64,000 nt of DNA from Actinomycetota bacterium (GTDB lineage Bacteria; Actinomycetota; Thermoleophilia; UBA2241), in assembly GCA_012514235.1 (NCBI GenBank), contig JAAZAR010000140.1:9414-73413 (forward strand), in the 5' to 3' direction. Made by a program: the position numbers and the translations under genes. Shown one piece after another: positions 14,355 through 31,478 of the stretch. The notes under the pieces were generated by a model. It was not told the DNA's origin, made no database searches, and worked only from the letters and a program-made list of their open reading frames with translations. The stretch's first letter is position 1; each line of letters starts with the position of its first letter.

Positions 14355-15011
14355 TCAGAGGATCGGTCCGAGCTCGGTCCATCCGGACGTGAGCTTCACC
14401 TTCAGCGTGAATCCGGTCGCCGGGCGTGCGTAGCTGTAGTCTCCCAGGCTCGCCCCGGCGGTCATGGCGGAGCCGGTCCACGGGTTGCGCGGCCAGACGT
14501 AGGCAGGGGAGGCGAAGGTGGTCTGGTCCAGCGTCTCCGGATACGTGTCGTGCTGCAGGTAGTAGGTCGTGAGGTAGCGCTGCAGCAGGAGCAGATTGTG
14601 CTTGCTCGCCGTGTTGCGCTCGGCTTTGAACCACGCGGGCATCGCGCTCTTCAGCACGAACTTGCCCTTGGAGAGGTGCATCGTGAGCCGGTAGCTCCGG
14701 CCGTCGCTGCCGAGGGCGTAGGTGTAGGTGCCGCGCGAGCTCCCCGGGCCCATGACCTTGCCGGTCCAGGGGTTGGCCGGCCAGATGATTGTGGAGTTGG
14801 GCAGCCCACCCCCCTTCTTCACCATCGACTTGGGCGGGTAGACGAACTGGTGGGCCTGGCCGTAGGTGTTGATGGAGCTCTGGATGAGGAGCCCGCCGGC
14901 CTGGACCTGCTTGTCCACGAAGCTGACGGCGTCGGCGCGCGGAGCCGCGGCGGCGAGGGTCAGGGCGAGGGCGACGGTCGACAGGACGACGAAGAGCCGG
15001 CGTCTGGTCAC
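14355..15011 (-). CDS. Secreted protein with two pseudopilin-globular-domain-like modules (family member P1)
   Basis: GTG start with AGGAGG 5 nt upstream and signal peptide MTRRRLFVVLSTVALALTLAAAAPRADA. Two modules end in IIWPANPWTGKVMGPGSSRGTYTYALGSDGRSYRLTMHL and YVWPRNPWTGSAMTAGASLGDYSYARPATGFTLKVKL. Confidence 0.8.
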   Translation of the reverse strand: MTRRRLFVVLSTVALALTLAAAAPRADAVSFVDKQVQAGGLLIQSSINTYGQAHQFVYPPKSMVKKGGGLPNSTIIWPANPWTGKVMGPGSSRGTYTYALGSDGRSYRLTMHLSKGKFVLKSAMPAWFKAERNTASKHNLLLLQRYLTTYYLQHDTYPETLDQTTFASPAYVWPRNPWTGSAMTAGASLGDYSYARPATGFTLKVKLTSGWTELGPIL

Positions 15012-15032
15012 GGGAGCCTCCTGTGGCGGTGA

Positions 15033-15959
15033 TCAGTCGGGGGAGCCGGCGCCGCGCGCCGGCGCCGCAGGCGACGGCGCGGTGCCTCCGGCCTCGTACT
15101 CCCCCGAGTGAAGATGGACGGTGAGCGTGTAGGCGCCGGCAGCGCCGGCGGCATACGTGTAGGTGCCGGGCACGGTGCCGGGCGCCATGGGGCCGCCGCT
15201 GGCGGGGTCGAGCGGCCAGTCCGTGTGGGCGGCGCCGACCGCCGCGGCCGGCGCCATCTCGACGGCGCTCGGGAGCGCACCGGCGTGCTGGAGCGACCAC
15301 TGGTCGACGTAGCCTCGCAGGATGCGGCCGTTTCGTCTGACGATCTCGTCCTCGAGGCTGATGAGCAGCTGCTGCCAGGGAGTGGCCACCACGGTGCCGG
15401 TCAGGACGTAGTCTCCCTTGAGTGCCCGATGCAGCCGCAGCGTGTACGACCTCCGGTCTGAGGTGACCGAGTAGGAGAACGACCCCCGATCGCGGCGCTG
15501 CGTCATGGCGCGGTGGTCCCAGGGGTTGCTGGGCCAGTAGCGGCGACGGGGCTCCTGGCCCACGGCGCCGTCCGACTCGATCGCGGACGGCAGAGGATAC
15601 CGGCCGTCGTGCGCGGCGGCGTAGTCCTCGATGTACTGGCGGATGAGGTTGATGCCCTCCTCGCTGCGGTGGTCGTAAGCCCGCATGATGGTGCGTGGCA
15701 TGCCCCCTCTGAGCACGATGGTGCCGCCGTTCAGGTAGCCGACGAGGCGGTAGCGACGCCTGTCCGGCGTCACGGTGTACCGGTAGTGGCCGCGGCCCGT
15801 GCCCGGACGCAGGTCCTGGCCCGTCCAGGGGTCGTCCGGCCACAGCCGGCTCCCGGCGAGGCGGCCTGGCTGGATCGACGCCCGGCGCGGATATACGAAG
15901 TAGCGCTCGGCCCCGGCGCGGTCGATGAGGCCGCGCAGCGCGAGGACGGCCGCCCTCAT
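15033..15959 (-). CDS. Protein with three pseudopilin-globular-domain-like modules (family member P2). A signal-peptide-coding extension continues in frame to about 16073 without a canonical start.
   Basis: Modules: LWPDDPWTGQDLRPGTGRGHYRYTVTPDRRRYRLVGYL; YWPSNPWDHRAMTQRRDRGSFSYSVTSDRRSYTLRLH; DWPLDPASGGPMAPGTVPGTYTYAAGAAGAYTLTVHL. The first ATG is at 15959. Upstream in frame the sequence encodes TTRRITRLTLILAALLLAALCAGAVTSAPARAA. Confidence 0.75.
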   Translation of the reverse strand: MRAAVLALRGLIDRAGAERYFVYPRRASIQPGRLAGSRLWPDDPWTGQDLRPGTGRGHYRYTVTPDRRRYRLVGYLNGGTIVLRGGMPRTIMRAYDHRSEEGINLIRQYIEDYAAAHDGRYPLPSAIESDGAVGQEPRRRYWPSNPWDHRAMTQRRDRGSFSYSVTSDRRSYTLRLHRALKGDYVLTGTVVATPWQQLLISLEDEIVRRNGRILRGYVDQWSLQHAGALPSAVEMAPAAAVGAAHTDWPLDPASGGPMAPGTVPGTYTYAAGAAGAYTLTVHLHSGEYEAGGTAPSPAAPARGAGSPD

Positions 15960-16214
15960 CTCCTCGTTCGGAGACGCCGCGCGGGCGGGCGCCGAGGTGA
16001 CAGCGCCCGCGCAGAGCGCCGCGAGCAGCAGGGCGGCGAGGATGAGCGTGAGTCGGGTGATGCGTCTCGTCGTGGCCCCCTTCTTCCTCTCCCAGTGTCA
16101 TCGGGCGCTCCGCTCCGGTCAACCGCAGGCGCCGCCGAGCCACGTCTGCTGCTACGATTCGCGACGAGCGTCGTGCAGCCTGCAGCGCTCGTGGATGGAA
16201 GCGAAGGGGGACAC

Positions 16215-17600
16215 GTGGAGACCAGGATCCCGACCCGGATGGGCGACGGCTACATGGTCGAGATGACGCCCAGCGAGCTGCGCGCGGACATCGAGGCCGC
16301 GACGGAGGAGGCGGCCCGCAAGGCGGGCTGCGCGCCGCTCGCCCAGGACGAGCTCGACCACCTGCTGGACATCTATGCCTCGCGTGCGGCGTTCACAGCC
16401 GTCGACATCGGGGACCAGGTGGTCCTCAGCTGCGACGGCGGCGGCAGCAAGATGACGGGCACCGACCTGCTCGATCTTCTCGAGAGCGAGCAGCGGCTGG
16501 GGCAGGACATCCTCGAGCTCTGGCACATCGAGTACAGCTACAAGGCGATCAAGACGATCCTGCCCTTCCAGCAGCAGGTGATGCAGAACGTCCAGCTCAT
16601 GTGCACGGCGCCGGTGCAGTACGGGGCGCAGCCCAACCTGGCCTTCTACAGCAAGCCCGACGGACCGGCGGAGAACTGGTTCGAGCTGCTGCCGCGCGGA
16701 GAGATCGCTGCCGCCCGCGCGGCCATCGAGGAGGCCATGGACCTCGCCACCAAGGACTTCATCTACGTGGGCGAGGGCATGCTGGACACCGGCGCCGACG
16801 GCATGGACTTCGACACCACCGGCGGCGCCGGCGACGCCGACTTCTTCAGCACCCTGCGCGCCGTGAAGCACCTGCGCGGGAAGTACCCCGACGCCGGCAT
16901 CGAGGTCGGGATGGCCGGCGAGTTCGTGATCGGCGTGCACGGGGAGCTGGAGTGGGACGGCCGCCGGCTGGCCGGCCTGTGGCCGGCGGCCCAGGTGCAG
17001 GTCTGCCAGGACGCCGGCGCGACGATCTACGGGCCGGCCGTCAACATCCGCACCGGCAAGAGCTGCGCCTGGAACGCTGCGTACGCGATCACCGTGTGCA
17101 AGCCCGCCATGGAGGTGGCGCGCATCCCCGTGCACCCCAACGTGGGCGAGGGCGTCGGCGGCGTGCCCGTGAACGGGTACCCGCCCGAGGACGCCGCGTC
17201 GCGGGCCGCCAAGGCGCACGTCGACATCCTGAAGTGCGACGGGTTGTAGGTGGGCTCGGGTGACTCCAGAGGCATGGACGTCACCCACGCGCTCGCCGCG
17301 GGCATGGGCGGAGTGCGCACGGCCGGAGACCTGGTCGCGCGCATGCAGATGTCCCGCGGGATGCGCCTCCCGGAGGCCAAGAGCTACGTCGCGGACAGAC
17401 TGGGCTGCACGGTCCGCGACCTCAGCGACAGTTACGCGATGGAGCAGATCCGCGGCGAGAAGGGCCTGGGGCGGATCCTCGACCACTCCAACCTGCACCC
17501 GGGCGAACCGAACGCCATCATGGCCAAGTTCCGGATCGCCGAGCTGCTGGACGTACCGATCAACTCGGTGGAGCGTTTTCGGGCGCTGGCGGGGGTGTAG
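16215..17600 (+). CDS. mtbB: Dimethylamine:corrinoid methyltransferase MtbB homologue. One reading frame with an internal in-frame UAG (candidate pyrrolysine codon) at 17247-17249.
   Basis: Track ORFs 15513..17249 and 17250..17600 share a frame and are separated only by TAG. From GTG 16215 the joined product is 461 aa. It carries MtbB-family motifs on both sides of the UAG (RMGDG, HIEYSYK, FDTTGGAGD, EVGMAGE, LAGLWP, KCDGL-UAG-VGSGD, AGDLVARM, EAKSYVADRLG, PINSVERF). Confidence 0.8.
17247..17249 (+). other. In-frame amber codon (putative Pyl recoding site) inside mtbB
   Basis: ...AAG TGC GAC GGG TTG TAG GTG GGC TCG GGT GAC TCC... The frame stays open for 116 more family-conserved codons. Confidence 0.75.
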
Positions 17601-18102
17601 CGGCCGGCGTGGCAGGCGGCCCTCCGCGCACGATGAGCCACGCCACGAGCGCCGCGGCGAGGCCGATCGGCACCAGGAGGACGGCGACGAGCGTGGTCAG
17701 GTACATGCCCACGCCGGGGTCGAAGAAGCCGATCGAGTCGGCCGCGTCCTGCGCGACGCCGAAGGCGACGACGCCGCACGCGGCCACCAGCACGCCGAGC
17801 AGGATGGAGGACCGGCGCGGCCGGGTGAGCAGCATCGCCAGCCCGGCCGCCAGCACGACGACCGCGACCGCCAGTGCCGGCGTGCCCCACGCGGTGTCCA
17901 GCACGCCGTTCAGCTCGCCGCCCTGCGACAGGCTGAAGTTGACCCAACCCGGGCCGTCGTCGTTCGCCCACGGCAGGAAGACGGCCCCGACCAGGGTGCC
18001 CCCGGCGACGAGCGTGAGGACGGCGTCGCCCGTCCAGTCGCGGCGCAGGCGGCGGGGGTCCCTCAGTCTGTCGGGCCGCTTCATGCCACCAGTATCGCTC
18101 AT
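17560..18102 (-). CDS. Hypothetical multi-pass membrane protein
   Basis: 180 aa with 4 predicted TM helices (AVLTLVAGGTLVGAVFL, ALAVAVVVLAAGLAMLL, ILLGVLVAACGVVAFGV, LTTLVAVLLVPIGLAAALVAWLIV). The 3' end overlaps the mtbB 3' end by 41 nt (convergent). ATG 18084 is an alternative, preceded by GATACT-N6. Confidence 0.55.
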   Translation of the reverse strand: MSDTGGMKRPDRLRDPRRLRRDWTGDAVLTLVAGGTLVGAVFLPWANDDGPGWVNFSLSQGGELNGVLDTAWGTPALAVAVVVLAAGLAMLLTRPRRSSILLGVLVAACGVVAFGVAQDAADSIGFFDPGVGMYLTTLVAVLLVPIGLAAALVAWLIVRGGPPATPAATPPPAPENAPPS

Positions 18103-18185
18103 GCGGCCGCGAGCTTGTACTGTGAGAAGGCCTTGAGGCAGCAGGGAGCGCTGCCGATACGGTGGGCAGCGACCCTGGGAGGCAG

Positions 18186-18572
18186 ATGATGAAGCGGACC
18201 ACGGCTGCGGCGCTGATCGCCCTGCTGGCGCTGGGCGCCGTCGCCGCGCTCGCCGGTTGCGGCCTGCGGGAGCAGGCGGTGGAGAACACCACCGGCAAGA
18301 TCGACGTGGCCAAAGACGCGACCGTCAAGGCGCAGCTGGTGATGATCAAGACCGGCATCGATGCGCAGATCGCGACCACCGGCGCCGCTCCGGCCGACGC
18401 CTCGCAGGCGACCCTCGGCGGTCTGGTCGACCCATGGCCGACCAACCCCTTCACCGGCGAGCCGATGCGCGAGGGTGAGGCTCCCGGCGACTACACGTAC
18501 AGCCCGGGAGCAGGCACGTCGTACACGCTCGTGGTGCATCTCTCCGACGGCACGACGTCCGCCGCCCCATGA
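18186..18572 (+). CDS. Lipoprotein with one pseudopilin-globular-domain-like module (family member P3)
   Basis: GGGAGG upstream and a lipobox, MMKRTTAAALIALLALGAVAALAGC. Helix KAQLVMIKTGIDAQIATTG, then LVDPWPTNPFTGEPMREGEAPGDYTYSPGAGTSYTLVVHLSDG. Confidence 0.8.
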   Translation: MMKRTTAAALIALLALGAVAALAGCGLREQAVENTTGKIDVAKDATVKAQLVMIKTGIDAQIATTGAAPADASQATLGGLVDPWPTNPFTGEPMREGEAPGDYTYSPGAGTSYTLVVHLSDGTTSAAP

Positions 18573-18623
18573 TTTGTGATGGCGACGGGCGGTTGCTACC
18601 CTAGGGCAAAAGGGGGTCGACCA

Positions 18624-19736
18624 GTGCTGGGAAACGCAGGCGGCGGGTGGCGGACCAGGCTCGCGTTGGTGGCGCTCGGCGTCGTGTGTCTGCTCGGCGT
18701 CTCCATCCCGATGGCGATGGGCGCCGATGCCACGCCCACGTACAAGCTCAAGAGCTACCGCAGCCGCGGCTGGGACCGCAGCTTCAAGGCCGACGTGTAC
18801 GAAGAGATGCCCAAGGTGCCGCGCGTGCTCGTCTTCGGCGGCTCGCGCGGCCTCCGCATGGATCCTGCCACCATCAAGAAGGCGACGGGGCTCACCGCCT
18901 TCAACTTCGCGTTCCACAACGGCCGGCCGGAGGACGCCTGGGCCGTCACCGACTGGGTCCTCGACACGCACCCCGACAAGCCCCCGACGGTGATCTGGTG
19001 CATCCAGGCCACGACCCTCGCCGACGTCCCGATGAACCCGGGGCTCATCGTCGACGAGCGTCTCTCGCAGGCGTTCCCGAAGTCGCTCATCAACGCCAAG
19101 ATGAAGTGGGCCATGAAGCAGCCCCAGCGCAACATCCTGTCGGGCCGCCGCTTCGGATACGACGGCATGCTGTGGTGGAACAGCTACGACAAGAAGCGGC
19201 AGCAGGGCCGCACGCTCAAGAGGGCCCTCGACATGTATCTCGACGCGGACATGCTCGCCAAGGCGGGCAACCGCAAGATCCCGGGCAACACCCGCTCCAA
19301 GTCGTACTTCGTCAAGACCATCAGGCTGCTCAACGCCTACAAGATCAGGCCGCTGATCGTGATCATGCCGTACCACCCGCGGGCGCTGAAAGCCTTCCGC
19401 GCGGTGGGCTGGGGCGTGAAGCAGCGGTGGCTCCGCACGTATCTCTCGAAACTGCAGGACCATCTCAACTTCAGGGTGCTCAACTGCGTCAACATCAAGA
19501 CGTTCGGGGGTAATCCCAACGGCTTCTACGACGGGGCGCATCTCACCGCCTCCAACTCGAGGAAGCTCATCCGCTACTGCGTCCGGCGCGCGCCCGGGTG
19601 CTTCAAGGTGCCCAAGGCGCCGACCCCGACGCCGTCACCCAGCGTGAGCGGGTCGCCGGCGCCGGCGCCCGTCGCTCCGCCGGCGTACCAGCCGGTACCG
19701 GAAGACACGAGCACGCAGGCCGACTTCCTCGAGTGA
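18624..19736 (+). CDS. Secreted SGNH/DltD-like hydrolase or acyltransferase-fold protein (tentative), C-terminal Pro-rich tail
   Basis: GTG 18624 with AAAGGGGG 7 nt upstream and signal peptide WRTRLALVALGVVCLLGVSIPMAMGADA. VLVFGGSRG early and FYDGAHLT late resemble the Ser and Asp-x-x-His blocks of SGNH/DltD proteins (inference). Lys-rich and visibly less GC-biased than its neighbours. Confidence 0.65.
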   Translation: MLGNAGGGWRTRLALVALGVVCLLGVSIPMAMGADATPTYKLKSYRSRGWDRSFKADVYEEMPKVPRVLVFGGSRGLRMDPATIKKATGLTAFNFAFHNGRPEDAWAVTDWVLDTHPDKPPTVIWCIQATTLADVPMNPGLIVDERLSQAFPKSLINAKMKWAMKQPQRNILSGRRFGYDGMLWWNSYDKKRQQGRTLKRALDMYLDADMLAKAGNRKIPGNTRSKSYFVKTIRLLNAYKIRPLIVIMPYHPRALKAFRAVGWGVKQRWLRTYLSKLQDHLNFRVLNCVNIKTFGGNPNGFYDGAHLTASNSRKLIRYCVRRAPGCFKVPKAPTPTPSPSVSGSPAPAPVAPPAYQPVPEDTSTQADFLE

Positions 19737-19764
19737 GCCGAGGGGAAGGCGCAGCGGAGGCGCA

Positions 19765-19809
19765 GCGGAGGCGCCCTCCGCGCACCCGGCGCCGCAGCGG
19801 GGCCGGGTG
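19765..19809. terminator. Two adjacent GC hairpins between convergent genes
   Basis: GCGGAGG cgc CCTCCGC (19765-19781) and CACCCGGC...GCCGGGTG (19783-19809). Confidence 0.55.
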
Positions 19810-19814
19810 CCGGC

Positions 19815-21191
19815 TCAGGCGCCGATCAGCTTCTTGACGTAGGTCGCGCGCCTGCTCGGGCGCCCGGTGCGGAGCTCCGCCTCGTCGGCGCTCCCCATCG
19901 CGCGGAGCGCCGCGTTCACGCCGATCCAGCGGAGCGGCTCCGGCTCCCACGGCTTCGAGCGGTGATCCACCCACGGCAGGCTCGTGAGCTCCGTCTCTCG
20001 CCCGAGGATGAGGTCGCGCAGCGTGCGGCCGGCCAAGTTGGTGGTCGAGACGCCGTCTCCCACGTAGGCGCCGGCCCACGCCATGCCGGTGGACCGGTCC
20101 AGCCCGGTCGAGGTGTACCAGTCGCGTGCCGCGGCGATCGCGCCGCCCCAGTGATGGGTCACCCGGACGCCCTCGAGGGTGGGGAAGAGCTCGCCCAGCA
20201 AGGCGCGCAGGTGCTCCCGGACCACCGGGTCGCGCTCGTACTCCTCGCTCAGGCGGGAGCCGTAGTGGTACGGGGCGCCGCGACCGCCGATGGCGATGCG
20301 GTCGTCGGCGGTGCGCATGGCGTAGAAGATGAGGAAGCGGAAGTCGCCGAACACCTCACGGCCGCTCCAGCCGACCTCGTCCCAGAACGATCGCGGCAGC
20401 GGCTCCGTGCCGACCATGAGCGAGTAGATCGGCACGACGGTGCGCTCGAACCCCGGAAGCTCGGGGGTGAACGCCTCGGTGGCGCGGACGACGACCTCCG
20501 CGCGCACGTCGCCCGCGGGCGTCACGGCGAGGTGGGGCGCGATGCCCGTGACGGGGGTGCGCTCGTAGATGGGCACCCCCACCTTCTCGACCACGTCGGC
20601 GAGGCCGCGGGCGAGACGGGCCGGGTCCACGGCGGCGCCGTGCGGCGTGAAGCCGGCCCCGAGGCACCCGGCCACCCTGATGCGCTCGCGCATCTCCGCC
20701 GCCCCGAGCGCCCGGTAGTCGTCCTCGCCGAAGCCCCAGGAGCGCTCGTAGTCCACGGTCTCGCGGAGGCGGAGCAGCTGCACGGGCGTGAGCGCGAGGT
20801 CGAGCTGCCCGCCGAGGTGGAAGCGCGCGTCGATGCCTTCCTCGTCCACGACGCGGGCGATCTCGTACACCGTCTGGTGCAGTGCGCGCTGCTGGTCCTT
20901 CACCGCCTGCCGGCCGTGAGTCCGGGCGGCGAGTTCGCGCGAGCCTGGGAAGGTGGTGTGGCACCAGCCGCCGTTGCGTCCCGACGCTCCGAAGCCGGCG
21001 ATCTCCCGCTCCAGGACCGCGACGCGCAGATGAGGGTCCGCCTTCTTGAGGTAGTAGGCGGTCCACAGTCCCGTGAACCCCGCACCGACGATGGCGACGT
21101 CGACATCGGTCGGACCGGGGAGAGAGGGACGGGGGACGAGCTCGCCGGGGAGGTCGTCGAGCCACATGCTGCGGGCGCGGTAGTCGGTCAT
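19815..21191 (-). CDS. FAD-dependent oxidoreductase (DAO family; gamma-glutamylputrescine-oxidase-like)
   Basis: 458 aa with dinucleotide-binding motif DVAIVGAGFTGLWTAYYL followed by GASGRNGGW. Confidence 0.85.
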   Translation of the reverse strand: MTDYRARSMWLDDLPGELVPRPSLPGPTDVDVAIVGAGFTGLWTAYYLKKADPHLRVAVLEREIAGFGASGRNGGWCHTTFPGSRELAARTHGRQAVKDQQRALHQTVYEIARVVDEEGIDARFHLGGQLDLALTPVQLLRLRETVDYERSWGFGEDDYRALGAAEMRERIRVAGCLGAGFTPHGAAVDPARLARGLADVVEKVGVPIYERTPVTGIAPHLAVTPAGDVRAEVVVRATEAFTPELPGFERTVVPIYSLMVGTEPLPRSFWDEVGWSGREVFGDFRFLIFYAMRTADDRIAIGGRGAPYHYGSRLSEEYERDPVVREHLRALLGELFPTLEGVRVTHHWGGAIAAARDWYTSTGLDRSTGMAWAGAYVGDGVSTTNLAGRTLRDLILGRETELTSLPWVDHRSKPWEPEPLRWIGVNAALRAMGSADEAELRTGRPSRRATYVKKLIGA

Positions 21192-21256
21192 GGCTGGCTC
21201 CTTGGGCGGTGGTGCCGATGGTATCAGCGGCGCCGCCCGCGCGCCCAGGGAATAGG

Positions 21257-22192: not shown

Positions 22193-22193
22193 G

Positions 22194-23669
22194 CTAGCGC
22201 TCGATGGGGTGGAGAGAGCCGGCGATGCGCGCGAGTTCCTCGCGCGTGAGATCGCCGGCCACGCTGACCGAGACCTTGCCGCCGACCCCTGTCGTGACGT
22301 AGAGGTGGGGCCAGTCGGGCAAACCGAGCACGATCTGCGCCGTCTCGCCGCGCAGGCTGCCCGACCGGATCCGCAGCGGCGTGGTCTCCGTGCGGGCCGC
22401 GGAATCCTCGTCGAAGGGGTCGTCCGACCCTGGCGGGTTCTCGGCCCGCCAGCGGCTGACGACGCAGAAGCGGTCGAAGCCGCGGCGGTAGGTGAGCACG
22501 ACGGTGAGCGACCCGACTTCCACGTCGCGCACGGGGCGATAGGCGCCGAGGAAGGCGCCGTCGACGGCGCCCGTCACCCCGCTCAGGCGGTAGCCACGAG
22601 GCACCCAGCCGGCGGCGTACGGCGTGAAGCTGGTCGTCGCGCGGCCGCCGAGAGCGGCCGCGTCGCGGAGCGTCATGCGGCGGAAGCGCTCGCTCATGGG
22701 GAGCAGCCTGGTGCGCTCGCCCGCGGCGAGCGTGAAGCGGCTGCGCGGGACGTCGCCGCCGACGCGCACGTTCTCGATGCGGGTCCCGCTCACCTCGCCG
22801 TCGGCGCTCCAGTGCTCGACGGCCAGGGGGTAGCCGGACTCGGCGTCGACGACGATGCGCGCGGATCCCTCGGTGCCGCCGCCGGTGAGGGGCTCGGGCA
22901 CCGTGACCGACCAGGCGCGGCGGCCCTCCCACTCCACCGGCGTGACGGGGACGTCCGGATCGAGTTCGGCGATCATGGCGCGTGCGTAGGCCGCAAGGCT
23001 GCGGTCCAGTACCTGGGAGGCTCCCATCCACGGGCTGAAGAACGGGCCGGGATCAGGGAGGTCGCGGGCGACTTCACAGTACAGGACCTCGCCGTCGCGG
23101 AACACGTAGCGCCGGGCGACGCGCCGGGCGGCATCGTAGGTGTAGGTGATGCCCTGGGCGCGCTGCTCGATCCGGTAGTCGCCGCGGGAGGTGAACGTGA
23201 AGGACCCGACGTGGAAGGAGAACGGCCGGCCGCGCGCCGAGCCGTACTCCACGACGTCGCCGCTGATGCTGGTCAGGCTCTCGAGTGCCCGCTCGACATG
23301 CGCGAGGACGGTGTCGGCCGTGGCGGGCGCCGGCGTGGAGCGCTGGACGCCGGGCACGCCGGCCCAGCTGACCGCTACGGCAGCGGCGACTGCCGCGACA
23401 ACGGCGGCGACCGCGGCGAGACGGAGGCCCCGGCGCCGCTGCGGCGGGGCCGGCGGTTGCTGTCGCGAGCCCGTCCGGTGGGCCGGGCCGGGCGGCAGCC
23501 CGTCGGCGCCGGCGAGTTCGCGCATCCGTTCGCGGATACGCTCGAAGTGGTCCGGGCAGTGCGGCGGCACTGGCGATTCGCGCAGCTCGCGGCTGAGATC
23601 CTCGTCCCAGCCGGAGCGCGGAGCGCCTGCGGCGCCGCGCCCGACGTCGTGTCCACCCCGCCCCGTCAC
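22194..23669 (-). CDS. Membrane-spanning anti-sigma factor with LolA-like/DUF4367-like ectodomain
   Basis: The GTG start overlaps the sigma-factor stop (GTGA). Cytoplasmic N-terminus, TM helix LAAVAAVVAAVAAAVAV, and a large extracytoplasmic domain ending ...VSVAGDLTREELARIAGSL. Confidence 0.75.
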   Translation of the reverse strand: MTGRGGHDVGRGAAGAPRSGWDEDLSRELRESPVPPHCPDHFERIRERMRELAGADGLPPGPAHRTGSRQQPPAPPQRRRGLRLAAVAAVVAAVAAAVAVSWAGVPGVQRSTPAPATADTVLAHVERALESLTSISGDVVEYGSARGRPFSFHVGSFTFTSRGDYRIEQRAQGITYTYDAARRVARRYVFRDGEVLYCEVARDLPDPGPFFSPWMGASQVLDRSLAAYARAMIAELDPDVPVTPVEWEGRRAWSVTVPEPLTGGGTEGSARIVVDAESGYPLAVEHWSADGEVSGTRIENVRVGGDVPRSRFTLAAGERTRLLPMSERFRRMTLRDAAALGGRATTSFTPYAAGWVPRGYRLSGVTGAVDGAFLGAYRPVRDVEVGSLTVVLTYRRGFDRFCVVSRWRAENPPGSDDPFDEDSAARTETTPLRIRSGSLRGETAQIVLGLPDWPHLYVTTGVGGKVSVSVAGDLTREELARIAGSLHPIER

Positions 23670-24238
23670 GAGGTCCTCTCCCGGACGAGGGCCGGCTCGC
23701 CGAGCAGCGCGCGCAGGCGGCAGCGGGCGGTGGCGAGGCGGGAGGAGACCGTCCCCTCAGGCACGCCGACCACCTCCGCCGCGGTGCGGTAGTCGTAGCC
23801 GTACTGGTGGACGAGGATGACGAGGACGCGCTGCTCCACGGGCAGGCGGTCCAGCGCATCCTCGAGCTCGGCCCAGCGGGTGACGAGATCGCACGGGTCG
23901 TTGTCGCACGAGAGGTCCGCCAGAGCGTCCTCGCTCGTGAGCACCTGGAAGCGGCGCTCGCGGCGCAGGTAGTCGAGACAGGTGGTGTAGGTGATGCGGT
24001 AGAGCCACGTGCCCACCTCGCTGTCGCCGCGGAAGCCGGTGAGCGACTGGTACGCCTTGATGGCGGCGTCCTGGAGCGCATCGTCCATGAGCACCGGGTC
24101 GCGAAGCACGCGGAAGGCGAGGGCGCGCAGGCGGCTGTCGTAGTGCTTGAGCATCCGGACGAACGCCTCGCCGTCGCCGCGCCGCGCGGCATCCACGGTC
24201 TGTTCGTCGATCTCGCGCTCTGCCGCGTCGTACGTCAC
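23666..24238 (-). CDS. ECF-type RNA polymerase sigma-70 family factor
   Basis: 190 aa. Region 2 (AFRVLRDPVLMDDALQDAAIKAY...F.G.S...TWLYRI..T..LDYLRRE) and region 4 HTH (YGYDYRTAAEVVGVPEGTVSSRLATARCRLR). Confidence 0.9.
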   Translation of the reverse strand: MTYDAAEREIDEQTVDAARRGDGEAFVRMLKHYDSRLRALAFRVLRDPVLMDDALQDAAIKAYQSLTGFRGDSEVGTWLYRITYTTCLDYLRRERRFQVLTSEDALADLSCDNDPCDLVTRWAELEDALDRLPVEQRVLVILVHQYGYDYRTAAEVVGVPEGTVSSRLATARCRLRALLGEPALVRERTS

Positions 24239-24339
24239 TGGCTCGCATCCCGGCCCCCTTTCGCGCGCTGTGGGGCGATCAGTCGATTAGACGCGACGGC
24301 GGGGCCGGTCCGTCACGCCGGCGTTGTCCCTCGCATCCG

Positions 24340-24345
24340 ATTCTA
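24340..24345 (-). promoter_or_regulatory. Candidate -10 element TAGAAT upstream of the ECF sigma operon
   Basis: The minus strand reads gcgctgTAGAATcgg. It lies between the terminator hairpin of the upstream gene and the sigma start, about 100 nt upstream of the start. Confidence 0.35.
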
Positions 24346-24371
24346 CAGCGCGTGAGCCGGGCTGCACTCGC

Positions 24372-24421
24372 GACGATGCCCGGCCGCCGCCCGTCCTTCG
24401 GCGGCGCGGCCGGGCATCGTC
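24372..24421 (-). terminator. Hairpin terminator (16-bp perfect stem) after the gene at 24478..25503
   Basis: GACGATGCCCGGCCGC ...18 nt... GCGGCCGGGCATCGTC. Confidence 0.7.
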
Positions 24422-24477
24422 GGGCGCCGCCTGCGGCTGCGGCCGGGCGGCGCGCCCGGAAGACGGTGCGGCGCGGC

Positions 24478-25503
24478 TCAGGGCACGGTGTACGTGAGGC
24501 CGTTGCCGAGGTAGCCGGTGAGCTTGTAGGCCTGGCCGCCGCTGAGCTGTTCGTACACGTAGCTGCCGGGCGAGGTGCCGGGAGTCATGGGTGCCCCCGT
24601 GAACGGGTTGGTCGGCCACGGATCGACGTACTGGGAGAGGCCGCCGCCCTGGATCACGTCCTGGGGCGACGGATACAGGTTGTCGTTCTCCGCCGCCCAG
24701 GCGACGATCCCCGCCTGGAGCTTGGCGATGTTGGCTACGACCTGCTGGTCGGCGCTCGGCGATCCGGTCGGGCTGGGGCTCGCGGTCGGCGTCCCGGTGG
24801 GGTTCGCGGTCGGCGTCGGTGAGACCGACACCGTGGGGGTGGGCATGGGGCTGGCGGGGAGCAGGACCTCGACGCGCACGTAGTACACGGGCTCGACGGA
24901 GAGATCGCCGGCCGTGACGTCCAGCCTCAGGCGATCGTGCGGCTCGTGCGTCAATGTGCCGCGCACGGTCCCGGTCACACCCTTGAGGCCGATGGCGGAC
25001 GCCCTGATCGAGAGTTCCAGTCTGCCGTCGACCAGGTCGGCGGCGGAGGAGCCGGCCTGCTGCAGGTCGCCGTCGTACTGGGTGACGGTGAACCGGCCGT
25101 CACCGAGCTGCTTGATCACGAGGCCGCCTCCGGCGCCCGTCTGCGGCGACCAGGTACCGACGAACTCTTCGCCGCCGGCTGCGTCCGAGTCGGTCGGCCG
25201 CAGGAAGAAGTACCAGAGTGCGGCCGCAGCGGCGATCACGGCGAGCACCACGACGAGCCAGACCCACCAGGGCACGCCCGGACGCTCGGGCCGCCCGTGC
25301 GTCATGAGCAGCGTGGGCTGGGCGGGCGGCGGGGGCGGAGGCTCGTCCGCCGCCGGCATCACCCGGGTCGCCTCGGTCTCTCCGCCGGGCATGACCTGGG
25401 TCTCGCCCTCGTCGGCGGGCGGCATGATGCGGGTCTCGTCATCCGGCGGCGTCACCCGGGTCAGCTCGGTATCGTCGTCGGGAACTCTGCGTTCGTCGTC
25501 CAT
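24478..25503 (-). CDS. Single-pass membrane protein: acidic repeat N-terminus, TM, beta-rich domain, PT linker, one pseudopilin-globular-domain-like module (family member P4)
   Basis: N-terminal ET-x-[VI]-MP repeats and TM helix WWVWLVVVLAVIAAAAALWYFFL. C-terminal KLQAGIVAWAAENDNLYPSPQDV...YVDPWPTNPFTGAPMTPGTSPGSYVYEQLSGGQAYKLTGYL. Confidence 0.8.
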   Translation of the reverse strand: MDDERRVPDDDTELTRVTPPDDETRIMPPADEGETQVMPGGETEATRVMPAADEPPPPPPAQPTLLMTHGRPERPGVPWWVWLVVVLAVIAAAAALWYFFLRPTDSDAAGGEEFVGTWSPQTGAGGGLVIKQLGDGRFTVTQYDGDLQQAGSSAADLVDGRLELSIRASAIGLKGVTGTVRGTLTHEPHDRLRLDVTAGDLSVEPVYYVRVEVLLPASPMPTPTVSVSPTPTANPTGTPTASPSPTGSPSADQQVVANIAKLQAGIVAWAAENDNLYPSPQDVIQGGGLSQYVDPWPTNPFTGAPMTPGTSPGSYVYEQLSGGQAYKLTGYLGNGLTYTVP

Positions 25504-25569
25504 GCTCGTCCTCCCGGGCGGGTGACGCTCGTCTGAGGTGTGCGGTCCGGCTCTACTACTTTGCCCCGC

Positions 25570-26865
25570 TCAGCCGGTTCCCTGTTCCAGTCCGCTCAAG
25601 AGATCGAAGAAGGTGGGACAGGTCTTGGCCACGCAGGCCGGGTCGGCGATGACCATCCCCGGCGTCCTGAGGCCGAGCACGGAGAACGCAATGGCGATGC
25701 GGTGGTCGCCGTGCGGATCGACGACGGCGCCGCGAGGCGTGCCGGGATACACGCGCAGCCAGTCGGGGCCGGACTCCGTCTTCACTCCGGTCCGGCCCAG
25801 GTTCTCCTCCACCGCCGCGATGCGGTCAGACTCCTTCAGGCGGACGGTGCCGATCCCCGTCACGGTGACCGGTGACGTGGCCAGCGGTGCGATCGCGGCC
25901 AGCGTCATGAAGGTGTCGGGGATGTCGGTCATGTCGACGGTGAGCCCCGACAGCGCGGCCGGACCGGTCACGCGCACGCCCTCGGGGAGGTCCTCGACGA
26001 GGCACCCCATCGCCGCGAGGACGTCCAGGAACGCCACGTCGCCCTGCAGGGCGTGGCGGCGATGCAGGCCGGCCACCCTGACGCGACCGGCCACGGCCGC
26101 GGCGGCGAAGAAGTACGACGCCGTGGACGCGTCGGGCTCCACGTCGTACTCGCGGCCGAGGTACCGCCCCGGCACGACGACGAACCGGTCGCCGGGGCCG
26201 CTCTGCGGCGTCACGCCGAACTGCTCCATCATGCGCAGCGTCATGGTCACGTAGGGCCGGCTGACGAGCCCGTCGACGTCCAGCTCGAGCGCAGCACGGC
26301 CGAGCGGCGCCGCCATGAGGAGGGCGGAGACGAACTGGCTCGAGGTGTCGCCCGGGAGCCGCAGGCCGCCTCCGGCGAGGCCGCTCGCCGCCAGCGTGAG
26401 CGGCAGGCCGGAGGCGGCGGCGGGCTCGGTGCGCACGCCCTGGGCGCGCAGCGCGTCGAGCAGCTGGCCGAGAGGGCGCCTCCGCAACTGCGGCGCCGCG
26501 TCGAAGTGGTAGGCGCCGCGGCCGGCCGCGGAGGCGGCGAGCAGGAAGCGTGCCGCGGTACCCGCCTCGTCGCAGTACACGGTGGCCTCGTCGGCCGGGA
26601 ACGGCCCTCCAGCTCCTCGGACGAGCAGGCCGGAGTCGAGACGCTCGACGGCGACGCCGAGGCTGCGCAGGCCGGCGGCGAACGCCTCCGTGTCGCCGGC
26701 CTCGAGCGCTCCGCGCAGCACGGACTCGCCCGAGGCGAGCGCGGCGAGGAGCAGTGCCCGGTTGGTCACGCTCTTGGAGCCGGGCACGCGCACGCGGGCG
26801 TCGAGTCCGGGTCGGGCGAGTCGGATGGTGCGGGTCGGGCCGGCGGGGGCGTTCATCGCCCGCAT
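25570..26865 (-). CDS. aroA: 3-phosphoshikimate 1-carboxyvinyltransferase (EPSP synthase)
   Basis: VPGSKSVTNRALLLAALA.G.S.L...L...DT; LPGD.SSQF.SALLMAAP; RLKESDR; DHRIAIAF. The start is ATG 26865 or 26856. The 678-aa track ORF is an overextension. Confidence 0.92.
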   Translation of the reverse strand: MRAMNAPAGPTRTIRLARPGLDARVRVPGSKSVTNRALLLAALASGESVLRGALEAGDTEAFAAGLRSLGVAVERLDSGLLVRGAGGPFPADEATVYCDEAGTAARFLLAASAAGRGAYHFDAAPQLRRRPLGQLLDALRAQGVRTEPAAASGLPLTLAASGLAGGGLRLPGDTSSQFVSALLMAAPLGRAALELDVDGLVSRPYVTMTLRMMEQFGVTPQSGPGDRFVVVPGRYLGREYDVEPDASTASYFFAAAAVAGRVRVAGLHRRHALQGDVAFLDVLAAMGCLVEDLPEGVRVTGPAALSGLTVDMTDIPDTFMTLAAIAPLATSPVTVTGIGTVRLKESDRIAAVEENLGRTGVKTESGPDWLRVYPGTPRGAVVDPHGDHRIAIAFSVLGLRTPGMVIADPACVAKTCPTFFDLLSGLEQGTG

Positions 26866-26879
26866 GATACCGCAGGCGC

Positions 26880-27266
26880 CTACCGCAGCTTGTCTGCGAC
26901 GAACTGCGAGAGGGCGTCGATCTGCGCGGCGCTCAGCGAGCCCGAGAAGCCCGGCATCCCGTCGCCCCCCTCCCGGATCTGTTCGCGGATGCTGTCTGGG
27001 TCGTCCTCCCCGGCGATGGCCGGCGCGCTCCCGCCGCCGCCGCTCGGGCCGTGGCAGCCGGCGCAGTTGGCGGAGTACAGGGCGGCGGCCTCTTCCGCCG
27101 GTCCCGCCGGTGACGCAGGCGCCGTCGGCGCATCCGTGGGAGTGGCTGCCTCGCTCGACGGCGCCGCCGGCGTGGCGGCGCCGTCCCCGGCCGGCTCGTC
27201 GCCGCACGCGGCGAGCGAGACGGCGACGATCAGCGCGAGCACGAACGCCAGAAGCTGACGGTTCAT
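26880..27266 (-). CDS. Class I c-type cytochrome, lipoprotein
   Basis: Lipobox AVSLAAC, Pro/Ala linker, haem motif CAGCH, and a distal Met region (GDGMPGF). Its start overlaps the upstream stop (ATGA). TAG stop. Confidence 0.85.
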   Translation of the reverse strand: MNRQLLAFVLALIVAVSLAACGDEPAGDGAATPAAPSSEAATPTDAPTAPASPAGPAEEAAALYSANCAGCHGPSGGGGSAPAIAGEDDPDSIREQIREGGDGMPGFSGSLSAAQIDALSQFVADKLR

Positions 27267-28231
27267 CCCGGCTCCTTTCCTGGTGTCTGGTCCGCTGCAT
27301 CCCGGAGGTCCTTCGCGTACAGCTCGTAGGCCGACGTCGCCCGCAGGCCGGCGCGCTCGTACAGGCGCAGCGGCCTCGTCGCGCCCTCAGCGTCCACGCC
27401 CAGGTCCACGCGCAGCCGGCCGCGCTCGAGGAACGCCGCGAGGGCGTGCGCGAGCAGCGCGCTGCCGAGTCCGCGCCGGCGCCAGGGCCTGCGCACGCCG
27501 AGTCCCTTGATCCAGCCGAGGTCGCCGTGGTCGTAGGCGATGAGCGCTCCGGCGGCCTGGTCGCCGTCCCAGGCGATCCACCACAGGTCCGGGTCGAAGT
27601 CGGCATGGCCGACCAGGCGGGCGCGCCAGGCGTCGAAGGGTTCTTCGCTCTGCCTGAAGTGATCGACGAAGGCCTCGTTCATGAGGTCGTACAGGGTGCC
27701 CTCGTCGGCCCCGAGCCGGAAGGGACGGATCTCGAGGCCCGGCGGCGGTGGGGAGACCGGCGCGCCGCCGGAGAGGTCGGCAGTCATCCGGTAGACGCTG
27801 CGCGTGAGCGCATACCCGTGCCGCCGCAGCAGGTCACGCTTGGCTCGGTTGCCGGAGATACAGAAGACGTCGAGGGTGGGGTCGGCGTAGCCACGCTCCA
27901 CGGCGATCCGCGCAGCGCGGCGCTCTGCGAGCCCGAGCAGCCGGTCGGGGAGCTCGGGCTCGTGACGCTCCGGGTGCACCCAGAGGTCGGCCTCCAGCTC
28001 GCCGGTACGGAACTGGTCGCCGGCGTAGGCATAGCCGACGAGCCCGGCGGGACCTTCCGCCACCCAGGCGTCCCGCGCCGGGTCGAAGCCCTCCATGGAC
28101 CAGTCGTTCTCGAGGTCTTCGAGGGTGCTGTCCGGCTCGCCGGTCTCGGCCACGTCGCAGGCGCACAGCAGCTCGACGATCTCGGGCATGTCGCCGCGCG
28201 TGGCGGGCCGGATGAGACTGGGGGCGCTCAT
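27263..28231 (-). CDS. Two-domain GNAT N-acetyltransferase (mycothiol-synthase MshD-like architecture)
   Basis: 322 aa from ATG 28231 (ATGA overlap with the upstream gene). Two acetyltransferase halves; the second has the acetyl-CoA motif GVRRPWRRRGLGSALL. Confidence 0.78.
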   Translation of the reverse strand: MSAPSLIRPATRGDMPEIVELLCACDVAETGEPDSTLEDLENDWSMEGFDPARDAWVAEGPAGLVGYAYAGDQFRTGELEADLWVHPERHEPELPDRLLGLAERRAARIAVERGYADPTLDVFCISGNRAKRDLLRRHGYALTRSVYRMTADLSGGAPVSPPPPGLEIRPFRLGADEGTLYDLMNEAFVDHFRQSEEPFDAWRARLVGHADFDPDLWWIAWDGDQAAGALIAYDHGDLGWIKGLGVRRPWRRRGLGSALLAHALAAFLERGRLRVDLGVDAEGATRPLRLYERAGLRATSAYELYAKDLRDAADQTPGKEPG

Positions 28232-28947
28232 ACGGTCTCGGCCGCGTCTCTCGTCAGCGTGATGGTCTCCTCGTAGTCCTCGCCGTCGGGCGACGTGCCC
28301 ACGATGCGCAGGTCGAGGCCGGCGTCGCCGGCGCGGCTGAGGATCAGCGTGAAGTCTCCGGCCACGGCCTGAAGGGTGGCCTTGAAGACCTTCGCGCCGT
28401 CCTCCTCGGCCATCTGCGAGAAGTCGTCCATGGTGATGACGAGGTCGCTGCCGTCGAGGTGCGCGGGCACGGTGCTCGTCTGCGAGGGGCCGTTCCCTGC
28501 GATGAGGACGGAGAACGCCTCGCCGTCCCGGGTGATCACCAGCGTAGCGGTCCCCCGGTCCGTGGCGGCCGTCCAGCTGCCGAGGAACTCCTCGCCGGTG
28601 GTGGCCGGGCCTCTGAGTACGAAGAACCAGACGAGGATGACGGCGACGACGGCGACGAGTCCGCCGACGACGACGAGACTGATGAGGCCGTCCCTGCCGA
28701 CGGCGGGCCGGGCCGAGGACGGCGTGGCTGCCCGCGGCTGGTGCTCCGGCCCCCACTGCCCGGGACCGCCGTACGGCGGCGAGCCTCCGTAGCCCGGCGA
28801 GTCTCCGTAGGCCGGCTCGCCGTGACCCGCGGCGCCCTGTGCGGTGGCCGGGGCCTGCAGGCCGCCGCCGGCCACCGGAGCCCCGCAGGCGCCGCAGGTC
28901 CAGTCGCCGTCCTTGATCGGAGTGTTGCAGCTCGTGCACTCGGCCAT
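28228..28947 (-). CDS. Zinc-ribbon membrane protein with extracytoplasmic beta-rich domain
   Basis: MAECTSCNTPIKDGDWTCGACGAP (CxxC...CxxC), a G/P/Y-rich spacer, TM helix LISLVVVGGLVAVVAVILVWFFVL, then GEEFLGSWTAA..., a domain shared with 24478..25503 and 30798..31478. Confidence 0.7.
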   Translation of the reverse strand: MAECTSCNTPIKDGDWTCGACGAPVAGGGLQAPATAQGAAGHGEPAYGDSPGYGGSPPYGGPGQWGPEHQPRAATPSSARPAVGRDGLISLVVVGGLVAVVAVILVWFFVLRGPATTGEEFLGSWTAATDRGTATLVITRDGEAFSVLIAGNGPSQTSTVPAHLDGSDLVITMDDFSQMAEEDGAKVFKATLQAVAGDFTLILSRAGDAGLDLRIVGTSPDGEDYEETITLTRDAAETV

Positions 28948-28994
28948 TCAGGTCTCCCTCGGGACGTCGTCGTCGGGCCGCATCTCCTTCGCTC

Positions 28995-30296
<1,302 letters not shown>

Positions 30297-30507
30297 CAAG
30301 TCCCTCCGCGGCCGCCGGCATCACGGCTGGACCGGCAGTGCCGCCGGCCTCCGTCTCCTGTCGGGGGCGATTGTCTCACAGAGGCGCGCCAGGGCGACAC
30401 GTCCCGTGGCGCCCGGGCGCCGGTCTGGTTTCTGCACGGCGCCCGGGGGAGAATCAACCGGGTACCGCGGCCGGGAGCCGCGGGGCCACAGCGGAGGGAG
30501 GATGAGG

Positions 30508-30780
30508 ATGCCGACGGGAGAGGAACTGCGCGACCTCGCGATCAAGGCGATCAAGAAGAAGCGCGACTTCTGGAACCACGTGATCGCCTACTGCATCGTC
30601 AACGCCTTCCTGGTGGGCATCTGGTTCTGGACCGGCGCCGGGTACTTCTGGCCGGGCTGGGTGCTGGCCGGCTGGGGCATCGGGGTGGCGTTCAACGCCT
30701 GGGACACGTACGGCCGCGGAAGCCGGCCGATCACCGAGGAAGAGATCCAGCGGGAGATAGACCGGCAGCGGCGCGGCTGA
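30508..30780 (+). CDS. 2TM-domain small membrane protein
   Basis: GGAGGGAGG upstream. 90 aa: KKKRDFWNHVIAYCIVNAFLVGIWFWT...WPGWVLAGWGIGVAFNAW matches the 2TM domain pattern. Confidence 0.7.
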   Translation: MPTGEELRDLAIKAIKKKRDFWNHVIAYCIVNAFLVGIWFWTGAGYFWPGWVLAGWGIGVAFNAWDTYGRGSRPITEEEIQREIDRQRRG

Positions 30781-30797
30781 GGCTCCGGTCCCGGTCG

Positions 30798-31478
30798 TCA
30801 GTCGCCGATGATGCCGCCGTCCGAGAGGCGGGCGGTGAGCGCGTACTTCCTGCCGCTGTCCAGCCGCTCGTACGTGAAGTCGCCGGGGTCCTCGCCCTGC
30901 TCCATCGGGCCGCCGGTGAACGGGTTGGACGGCCAGCGCACCATGGTGCCCAGGAGGCCGTCCGCGGCGACCTCCTCGGCCGGCGGGTACTTCTTGCCGC
31001 CGCCGGCCTTCCACATCGCAAGGCCTCGTCGCAGCACGGCGAGGCCGGCGGCGACCGAGGCGTCCGCGTACTGCGTCGCGTCCACCCGCTCCAGCACGAC
31101 TGCCTGGGGGGACGCGAACATCGAGCCGGAGAACGTCAGACTGAGCTGGTCCGGCCCCGCCGGCGTCAGCGTCATCGTGACGGCGTGCGAGTCGACGACG
31201 AGGGAGTCGCCCTCCCTCACGGCGTCTCCCGCCGGGGCGTCCGGATTGGTGAGCACCACGTAGTCGTCACGGTCCTTGCCGACCTGCACCATGGTCATCC
31301 CGTCGGGCGACCCGCCGCCGAGCCAGAACCCGACCAGCGGGTCGCCGTCGGCACTGTCTCCACCGCAGGCGGCGAGCGCCGCCATCAGGACCGCCGTCAC
31401 GAGGACGGCGGTCAGCGCCGCGAGGACGCCGCGCCCGCGCTGCCGGCGCGTCAGGCCGCGTCGACGCGCCTCATGCAC
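30798..31478 (-). CDS. Lipoprotein: beta-rich domain plus one pseudopilin-globular-domain-like module (family member P5)
   Basis: Lipobox MAALAACGG. DPLVGFWLGGG... domain. C-terminal LAVLRRGLAMWKAGGGKKYPPAEEV...VRWPSNPFTGGPMEQGEDPGDFTYERLDSGRKYALTARLSDG. Confidence 0.8.
   Translation of the reverse strand: MHEARRRGLTRRQRGRGVLAALTAVLVTAVLMAALAACGGDSADGDPLVGFWLGGGSPDGMTMVQVGKDRDDYVVLTNPDAPAGDAVREGDSLVVDSHAVTMTLTPAGPDQLSLTFSGSMFASPQAVVLERVDATQYADASVAAGLAVLRRGLAMWKAGGGKKYPPAEEVAADGLLGTMVRWPSNPFTGGPMEQGEDPGDFTYERLDSGRKYALTARLSDGGIIGD

Follow-up and report, generated by a model that had tools for sequence, protein, structure and literature searches.

Five genes in a 64-kb stretch of DNA from an uncultured soil actinobacterium of the class Thermoleophilia (contig JAAZAR010000140.1, positions 9,414 to 73,413; the whole stretch is referred to below as the window) encode proteins built from a module of ~95 amino acids (aa) that, as judged from sequence comparisons, is the head of the type IV pilin (T2SSG/PilA type) made by the lineage itself. 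The genes, here called A–E, specify one (C, D and E), two (A) or three (B) modules, and from their sequences A and B have Sec-type signal peptides, C and E have lipoboxes and D has a membrane anchor. We think it probable (about 0.72) that the products are non-polymerising pilin-head proteins, tethered to the envelope or secreted, with a structural or adhesive role. To our knowledge, type IV pilin heads otherwise function only in leader-bearing subunits that are polymerised by a dedicated machine.

Relationship of the module to Thermoleophilia prepilins

The evidence for this identification comes from proteins that are unmistakably prepilins. In BLASTP comparisons, D shows 37% identity to the prepilin P0279 over 93 aa (E 3e-15), and C shows 41% identity to it over 88 aa (E 3e-14). 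A hidden Markov model (HMM) made from 137 family modules, all of them leaderless, matches 72 out of 72 leader-bearing prepilins from HMM position 3 to position 99, with scores (80–127 bits) that equal or exceed those of the window's own modules. The matched prepilins are proteins of ~130 aa with the class III leader MKRFTKQG/FTLIELLIVIIIIGILAAIAIPMFLNQR and a Pfam N_methyl domain (PF07963), to which some add T2SSG (PF08334); their consensus reads MKRFTKQGGFTLIELL...NQRDKAKDSAVKEGVHSIQVGIQSYAVDNNDVYP...VDNWPKNPWTG.AM..G..GDYTYT...TFTLAGH..SGDFTVP. It follows from these BLASTP and HMM matches that, at the sequence level, the module is the head of the lineage's type IV pilin, and an earlier suggestion made without database searches (the sequence-only reading), that the module echoes the globular part of pseudopilins, is upheld and now has direct homology behind it.

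A search with an alignment of the prepilins of one Thermoleophilia bin (locus L020) and related sequences gave 3,235 proteins at E<=1e-5, many of them prepilins of ~130 aa that bear source names such as PilA, T2SS (type II secretion system) protein G, ComGC or 'prepilin-type ... [Thermoleophilia bacterium]'. Locus L020 itself had come from the genome scan described below, in which it matched the D module with 32% identity, and its prepilins were exposed by a scan for the class III motif: two adjacent genes have ...GG/FTLIELLIVIIIIGILAAIAIPMFLNQR(D/T)KAK... followed by the module as the remainder of the protein (N_methyl E ~1e-8; module HMM 35 and 53 bits, positions 3–99), with a prepilin peptidase gene 3 kb downstream (A24_N_bact 1.6e-31, Peptidase_A24 3e-12). 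Both of these prepilin reading frames (L020:5207-6303) appear to be disrupted, the second lacking an in-frame start codon and having its head out of frame for ~25 codons; this is probably attributable to indel errors of assembly. In the second of the two pilin loci that were inspected for neighbours (L025, with pilin P0335), there is a complete type IV pilus (T4P) cluster comprising pilB, pilT, pilC, a sigma factor, three pilins, an ATP-binding cassette (ABC) pair, prepilin peptidase, pilM, pilN and pilO, so that a prepilin peptidase gene is found near the pilins in both.

Comparison with the major pilin of the Thermoleophilia (P0279, P0335 and P0378; L020 and L025) shows the same head from end to end, with 37–44% identity to C and D: the alpha1-C helix ...SIQVGIQSYAVDNxDxYP, the WPxNPWTG loop, the GDYTY...TFTLxGHLxxG strands and the C-terminal TVP are all shared. 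What the pilins have, and the window proteins do not, is the class III leader, a single-headed chain of ~130 aa, a peptidase gene nearby, pilB/T/C (in L025) and riboswitches of the c-di-GMP-I (cyclic di-GMP) class. More distantly, the module has the topology of GspG/PulG/EpsG (PDB 1t92, 3fu1 and 3g20), in which a helix is followed by an alpha–beta loop and a three-stranded sheet, and the YP and Px[DN]PW motifs fall in the same register; the hhalign alignment places a module-specific insertion of ~12 residues (TGxPMxxGxxxG) ahead of the first strand. The module lacks the C-terminal Ca-binding loop of GspG, its leader and its T2SS context.

Eight modules in five genes

A six-frame search of the window with the module HMM found exactly eight modules, all within genes A–E (domain independent E-value, i-E, 3.5e-20 to 2.4e-33); the best of the remaining matches had an i-E of 0.65, so there is no ninth module in the 64 kb. 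These are the eight modules in five genes that had been picked out from the letters alone, and the motif then described is present at eight places in the translations of the five open reading frames (ORFs). Aligned together, the eight show 24–41% identity to the first module in the alignment, that of C, and have eight invariant columns, among them the P of 'YP', the W and both Ps of 'WPxNP', two Gs, a Y and an L.

Gene A (14355..15011, minus strand; 218 aa) encodes a Sec signal peptide (aa 1–28, 14928-15011, ending ...APRADA/VS) and then two modules (14640-14942, i-E 3.2e-32; 14367-14642, i-E 3.5e-20); an orthologue of 231 aa is syntenic in two related contigs (L021 and L022). Gene B (15033..16061, minus strand) has three modules (15699-15995, i-E 9e-26; 15390-15701, 1.4e-29; 15078-15377, 1.2e-27), a signal peptide encoded by 15978-16061, and an annotated ATG at 15959. 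Repetition of the module within single polypeptides, as first perceived by eye, is thus evident in both A and B. Gene C (18186..18572, plus strand) specifies a lipoprotein of 127/128 aa in which the lipobox LAGC (Cys24, codon 18258-18260) and a short linker precede one module (18288-18569, i-E 1.7e-26), and its orthologues, of 120–127 aa, make up more than 100 clusters.

The remaining two are more elaborate. Gene D (24478..25503, minus strand; 341 aa) begins with an acidic, Pro-rich cytoplasmic N-terminus of ~76 aa, followed by one transmembrane (TM) helix (25201-25275), a further domain that we call domain X (24850-25188), a Pro/Thr/Ser linker (24757-24858) and a C-terminal module (24481-24774, i-E 2.4e-33) that terminates in ...TYTVP, like prepilins; orthologues occur in L001–L016. 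Gene E (30798..31478, minus strand) encodes a lipoprotein of 226 aa with the lipobox LAAC (Cys38, codon 31365-31367), an N-terminal domain of ~90 aa (31074-31349) and a C-terminal module (30804-31088, i-E 5e-28). The G+C content at third codon positions is 0.90–0.94 in all five ORFs, and the ratio of nonsynonymous to synonymous substitution rates (dN/dS) for A–D against their orthologues is 0.29–0.48; these are therefore real genes under constraint.

Targeting signals in place of a pilin leader

In none of the five proteins could we find the class III leader motif (Gly-1, Phe/Met+1, Glu+5) or a match to Pfam N_methyl (PF07963), and none has a hydrophobic alpha1-N segment continuous with the head helix. 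The hydrophobic segment is parted from the head in different ways: by a signal-peptidase-I-type site ahead of the helix in A and B, by a lipobox Cys plus linker in C and E, and by a stretch of ~170 aa in D. Signal peptides and lipoboxes were called by eye and by regular expression, the pattern [LVI][ASTVI][GAS]C closing the N-terminal signal of both C (LAGC) and E (LAAC). The claim of the sequence-only reading that these proteins use Sec signals, lipoboxes or a TM anchor instead of a prepilin leader has therefore stood up. The wider family agrees with this: among 113 relatives (the top-scoring representatives that start with M and have at least 20 residues ahead of the first module), a hydrophobic stretch is present near the N-terminus of 106 and a lipobox in 26, but the motif G/FTLxE in none.

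The start of gene B calls for separate comment. The annotated ATG (15959) falls within the first module, and the reading frame extends upstream to a stop at 16098-16100, encoding in frame the signal peptide ITRLTLILAALLLAALCAGAVTSAPARA/AS, so the true N-terminus of B is probably this upstream Sec signal peptide. There is no ATG, GTG or TTG between the signal peptide and the upstream stop. In the orthologues P0010 and P0050 and in the 343-aa gene of L021, there is an ATG at that place together with a signal peptide, and alignment of the start (relatives ...CATC ATG ATC CGA CGC... versus window ...CGC ATC ACC CGA...) leaves, as the candidate start codon of B, an ATC at 16061 that is preceded by a conserved purine tract, GGAGAGGAAGAAGGGGG. 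The anomaly may reflect a misassembly, a rare start codon, or an inactive gene or one whose product has lost export.

Profile and structure comparisons

Public profiles recognise these proteins poorly. Pfam gave no match to N_methyl, T2SSG or any other family at E<=1 for A–E, and NCBIfam gave no relevant family (there were weak matches to signal regions, far below cutoff). Scanned singly, 13 of the 137 family modules matched T2SSG (PF08334; best E 4.8e-4, 14–19.5 bits against a cutoff of 21), the matches being collinear (e.g. module residues 2–91 on profile positions 4–94 of 108), and T2SSG was the sole biologically coherent Pfam family to recur in these scans. The only other recurrent match, to 2C_adapt (PF08793) in 17 modules, was rejected as a motif coincidence, being sub-cutoff and confined to a short NPxTG motif. 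None of the window proteins reaches the gathering threshold of 21 bits that defines membership of T2SSG. The earlier statement that no named family was recognised needs correcting at the level of the domain: the module is a divergent branch of the Pfam T2SSG/PilA head, and the window modules lie just below the threshold (relatives reach 16.5–19.5 bits).

Used as profiles against the sequences of the PDB, neither 8 nor 137 modules yielded anything significant; GspG chains came third and fourth among the 177,635 entries searched (E 2.2). The top matches (E 0.03–0.5) were to H/S subunits of photosynthetic reaction centres, and were set aside as another motif coincidence, in a Pro/Gly loop. Against four GspG sequences taken from PDB alignments, hhalign gave a probability of 20% (P ~1e-3), while placing the helix, YP and Px[DN]PW in the very register that had been proposed by eye. 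Taken alone, the T2SSG and hhalign links are only suggestive.

An AlphaFold2 model of the D module, based on the 137-sequence alignment, was predicted with high confidence (pLDDT 98.1, pTM 0.89) and has a pilin-type fold, a long N-terminal helix (residues 2–23, 22 residues) lying on an antiparallel sheet of three strands (66–71, 76–82 and 88–91), with a long loop between helix and sheet that contains one short helical turn and the conserved WPxNP[WFY]TG motif. The only domain-length matches of this model in a Foldseek search of the PDB were to pilins (PulG, 1t92, TM-score 0.50/0.44; CofA, 0.48; and PilA1 of Clostridioides difficile, 0.46); there was no match at E<=1e-3 for either the one-module or the two-module model. 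Tandem-SH2 proteins, which matched the two-module model at a root-mean-square deviation above 16 Å, were regarded as noise. The Foldseek likeness is not significant; the case for homology rests on the sequence links through the lineage's prepilins. The two comparisons that had been proposed from the sequence alone, of HMM with HMM and of predicted with solved structures, thus provide an alignment in register that is suggestive only (20%) and a pilin-like helix–sheet model whose matches to solved pilins are not significant (best E 0.89).

For mature A (two modules), the AlphaFold2 model had pLDDT 95.8 and pTM 0.83, and the helix of module 2 begins two residues past the last strand of module 1. 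These scores predict a defined mutual orientation of the two modules.

Spread and gradation of the family

A word-indexed protein search found 173 relatives, all unnamed, and an exhaustive HMMER search of 1.84 billion cluster representatives found 708, of which 371 were at E<=1e-10. The relatives carry one to six modules per protein, some with a coiled-coil insert. In a genome scan run with a narrowed alignment, all 20 of 20 loci came from genome bins of uncultured Thermoleophilia or Actinomycetota. Ten multi-domain relatives were examined for the domains that accompany the modules, and the weak matches obtained, to GDSL, BNR, DUF4190 and coiled coils, were uninformative.

The single modules of C, D and E cluster with prepilins (maximum identity 44%, 44% and 35%, respectively), and the tandem modules show 22–29% mean identity to prepilins. 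The latter group by position, A1 with B1, and B2, B3 and A2 each with multi-module relatives, which points to arrays of some age.

A set of 'intermediate' relatives (P0195, P0198, P0229, P0234, P0238, P0266 and P0272), none of which is in the window, have a long Pro-rich N-terminus, the segment GFPVWAIVLIV...LAAIAIPMFLNQRDKA and one head, and score 101–122 bits on the module HMM (one also has 19.2 bits on T2SSG). They have kept the C-terminal half of alpha1-N, joined directly to the head, and have lost the FTLIE core with Glu5; GFPVWAI looks like a degenerate class III signal in which the Gly has been kept, Glu5 lost and five residues inserted. With these proteins (P0195, P0238 and P0272 were compared), the window proteins share the head, and D also shares the long Pro-rich cytoplasmic N-terminus before a membrane segment, but in the window proteins no half of alpha1-N remains joined to the head. 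The start of D's TM helix, GVPWWVWLVVV, faintly resembles the GFPVWAI segment. In A and B, the hydrophobic core of the signal peptide occupies the position of alpha1-N in the pilin, and by eye the conserved inter-module junction MPxW[FL]KxER might be likened to the end of alpha1-N, ...IPMFLNQR.

Pilin heads combined with other domains in one polypeptide are also a feature of minor and modular pilins (for a review, see PMC7248040), to which the window proteins are in that respect alike. Large type IVb (T4b) minor pilins and the modular pilins of Streptococcus sanguinis, though, keep the class III leader and alpha1-N and enter the filament. In the window proteins, the leader has been exchanged for Sec, lipoprotein or TM targeting, and the heads themselves are repeated. 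As a domain, then, the module belongs by sequence to the T2SSG/PilA head family, as a divergent member. The whole proteins, by contrast, show none of the features that define a type IV pilin, whether leader, alpha1-N or machinery context, and should not be classed as pilins.

Genomic context

The window has ~71% G+C and is made up of ordinary chromosomal genes (ddl, an L,D-transpeptidase gene, a UDP-glucose dehydrogenase gene, aroA, purB, purE, purC, purA, and genes for DnaB and superoxide dismutase, among others). Genes A–E are scattered among these genes for purine and aromatic amino-acid biosynthesis and other housekeeping functions, and the arrangement of four of the five (A–D) is syntenic in L021 and L022. 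From their dispersal among housekeeping genes, A–E are to be seen as a paralogue family and not as one gene cluster. No pilus ATPase, prepilin peptidase or other pilus machinery was found among the ~55 genes of the window that were scanned, or in the syntenic L021 and L022. The proposal that five copies within 17 kb make up a lineage-specific surface system must accordingly be scaled back.

Regulation may also set the family apart. In the pilin loci, c-di-GMP-I riboswitches are found directly upstream of leader-bearing pilin genes (L025:9816-9890, 62.4 bits; L025:11230-11304, 62.5 bits; L020:5105-5180, 58.9 bits), and none was found in the 64-kb window; it is therefore probable that the leaderless paralogues and the pilus are under different control.

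Genes A and B are adjacent (21-bp gap), and in the relatives they lie between the split mttB and mtbB genes. We keep this as synteny only: a functional link to these methylamine methyltransferase genes was dropped, since the enzymes are cytoplasmic whereas A and B are exported. On that side of A which mttB occupies in L021 and L022, the window has a gene (12081-14120, plus strand) for a secreted protein of the F5/8-type-C (discoidin) kind; it contains a linker rich in Pro/Thr and, by eye, its C-terminal region looks like a beta-helix.

Three base pairs past C is a gene (18576-19736, plus strand) for a membrane-anchored protein of 386 aa, an orthologue of which (383 aa) is conserved beside C in L021 and L022. 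It has no match in Pfam or the PDB; GxSR and DGxH motifs, by eye, are reminiscent of acyl-transferases of the SGNH/AlgX type. A weak GDSL-like region is fused to modules in the relative P0176.

Gene D is upstream of genes for an extracytoplasmic function (ECF) sigma factor (23666-24238) and a putative anti-sigma factor of 491 aa (22194-23669, minus strand). The C-terminus of the latter resembles, by eye, the C-terminal domain of a protein encoded elsewhere in the window (10655-~11850, minus strand), and Pfam has no match for either. Gene E shares its first 8 bp with the end of the RidA gene upstream of it. Between D and E is a gene without a module, F (28228..28947, minus strand), which specifies a zinc ribbon (Pfam Zn_Ribbon_1, E 5e-4, sub-cutoff), a TM helix and a copy of domain X (28300-28608). 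This domain of ~110 aa, which starts ...FVGTW... and belongs to no Pfam family, is common to F, many D orthologues and D itself (between anchor and module); jackhmmer started from D's copy finds F at E 6.5e-20 in a small local set. The N-terminal domain of E (31074-31349) was not retrieved by the same jackhmmer search, although by eye it may resemble domain X.

A probable role in the envelope without filament assembly

How might such proteins be used? The head has been parted from the class III leader (G/FTLIE) and alpha1-N and is joined instead to a Sec signal (A and B), a lipoprotein signal (C and E) or an N-in anchor (D), D having in addition an extra domain and a Pro/Thr linker. In the reading that we favour, export would be by Sec and, for C and E, through Lgt and Lsp. 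The cell being monoderm, the products would then stay attached by lipid or helix to the outside of its membrane or lie free in its wall zone. Because alpha1-N and Glu5 are absent, the proteins would not be expected to enter a filament, nor should they need a prepilin peptidase or an assembly ATPase. In A and B the heads are concatenated head to tail in a predicted fixed orientation of neighbours, so that the tandem proteins might be short, rigid, covalently pre-linked rods of pilin heads, whereas single-head proteins would display one head at the end of a tether (C-terminally in D and E, and in D after the Pro/Thr linker). Most likely, this would provide a structural or adhesive (binding) module of the envelope showing the same surface as the pilus shaft.

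The domain identity, the absence of leader and alpha1-N, the Sec, lipoprotein or TM N-termini, and the tandem architecture with its fixed predicted geometry are established features to which this reading adds a function, and several points weigh against it. The function is deduced from architecture only; the co-occurring domains (domain X, the PT linker and the coiled coil) hold no hint of a ligand; the signal calls were made by eye and by regular expression; the likeness of the fold to that of solved pilins falls short of significance in Foldseek (best E 0.89); the dN/dS of A–D is only moderately low; B has no canonical start codon ahead of its signal peptide in the window; and the absence of T4P machinery is a result for the window and the syntenic loci, not for the whole genome.

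A bolder extension of the same idea, which we advance tentatively and consider rather unlikely, is that the pilin head has become a general-purpose surface block independent of any machinery, concatenated heads being Sec-secreted, 'pre-assembled pilus-like' rods, and that the family also preserves a stepwise route from class III to class I/II signals. The stages would run from prepilin to the Glu5-less GFPVWAI form, which retains part of alpha1-N, then to the conversion of the hydrophobic segment into a cleavable signal peptide or lipobox, and finally to tandem arrays in which the MPxW[FL]KxER junction would be a remaining echo of the ...IPMFLNQR end of alpha1-N.

A live, though rather improbable, alternative is that the proteins are accessories that interact with the pilus (as anchor, cap, chaperone or regulator), or that they decoy whatever targets its shaft, pilus-specific phages for example. 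Many phages use type IV pili as receptors, and C and D, which cluster with the prepilins at identities that reach 44% (the pilin being as close to the modules as they are mutually), would therefore display a pilus-like surface. Linkage to pilus genes, however, is absent from the window and the syntenic loci, the tandem modules have diverged strongly and position-specifically from the pilin head (the 22–29% mean identity noted above), and the c-di-GMP riboswitch of the pilin genes was not found in the window.

We give very little weight to the notion that A–E are still filament subunits whose signal peptides or TM helix serve as alpha1-N in a non-canonical assembly into a pilus-like fibre. The hydrophobic segment of A and B does lie exactly at the alpha1-N position of the prepilin, and the intermediates retain ...LAAIAIPMFLNQRDKA... 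after the degenerate GFPVWAI; but the lipobox and AxA cleavage sites come after the hydrophobic segment, hydrophilic spacers of 20–170 aa stand between anchor and head in C, D and E, there is neither a Gly-1/Glu5 motif nor an N_methyl match, tandem heads cannot pack in the pilin helix, and no assembly machinery is nearby. Scarcely credible, finally, is convergence, in which an unrelated small alpha/beta domain would share only the Pro/Trp-rich motif: no window protein passes Pfam T2SSG, and the comparisons with PulG (Foldseek E 0.89, TM-score 0.50) and by hhalign (20%) are compatible with it, but full-length BLASTP and HMM matches (E 1e-14 to 1e-39) link the modules to leader-bearing prepilins, some of which carry PF08334.

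A pyrrolysine-type methyltransferase gene

Beside gene B, the window has a dimethylamine methyltransferase gene, mtbB (16209-17600, plus strand; Pfam Dimeth_Pyl 8e-108 and 1e-37), that contains an in-frame TAG (17247-17249) exactly at the pyrrolysine position of the Dimeth_Pyl profile. An Rfam PYLIS_2 match (17247-17346; 58.9 bits, E 1.4e-11) begins at this TAG, and the same combination of TAG and PYLIS elements is found in the mtbB and mttB genes of relatives (L021:4379-5848, L021:7959-9344 and L024:5305-6774). This suggests that pyrrolysine is decoded in uncultured Thermoleophilia, on which we found nothing in the literature. There is no tRNA-Pyl in the window or in loci L001–L024, no pylTSBCD in the sequences examined and no corrinoid-protein gene adjacent to mtbB. 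In L017 (3851-3943, plus strand), ARAGORN called a tRNA-like gene of 93 nt with a four-base anticodon (ggta) and undetermined identity, which may be a false positive.

Implications

The domain is already known, and it is the mode of its deployment that appears to be new: we found no literature description of pilin heads that are leaderless, exported as Sec substrates or lipoproteins, or arranged in tandem, although such an absence is no proof of novelty. The family comprises hundreds of sequence clusters, confined in the 20 genome loci sampled to uncultured Thermoleophilia, in which a pilin head has been placed on general secretory or lipoprotein routes and repeated within one chain. For annotation, this means that 'hypothetical lipoproteins' of this kind are to be recognised as divergent proteins of the T2SSG/PilA-head type, for which the name pilin should be avoided. 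If the reading that we favour is true, the family would document the exchange of one class of signal peptide for another, and would be a natural case in which the domain of a filament subunit has been exapted into non-filament proteins of the envelope.

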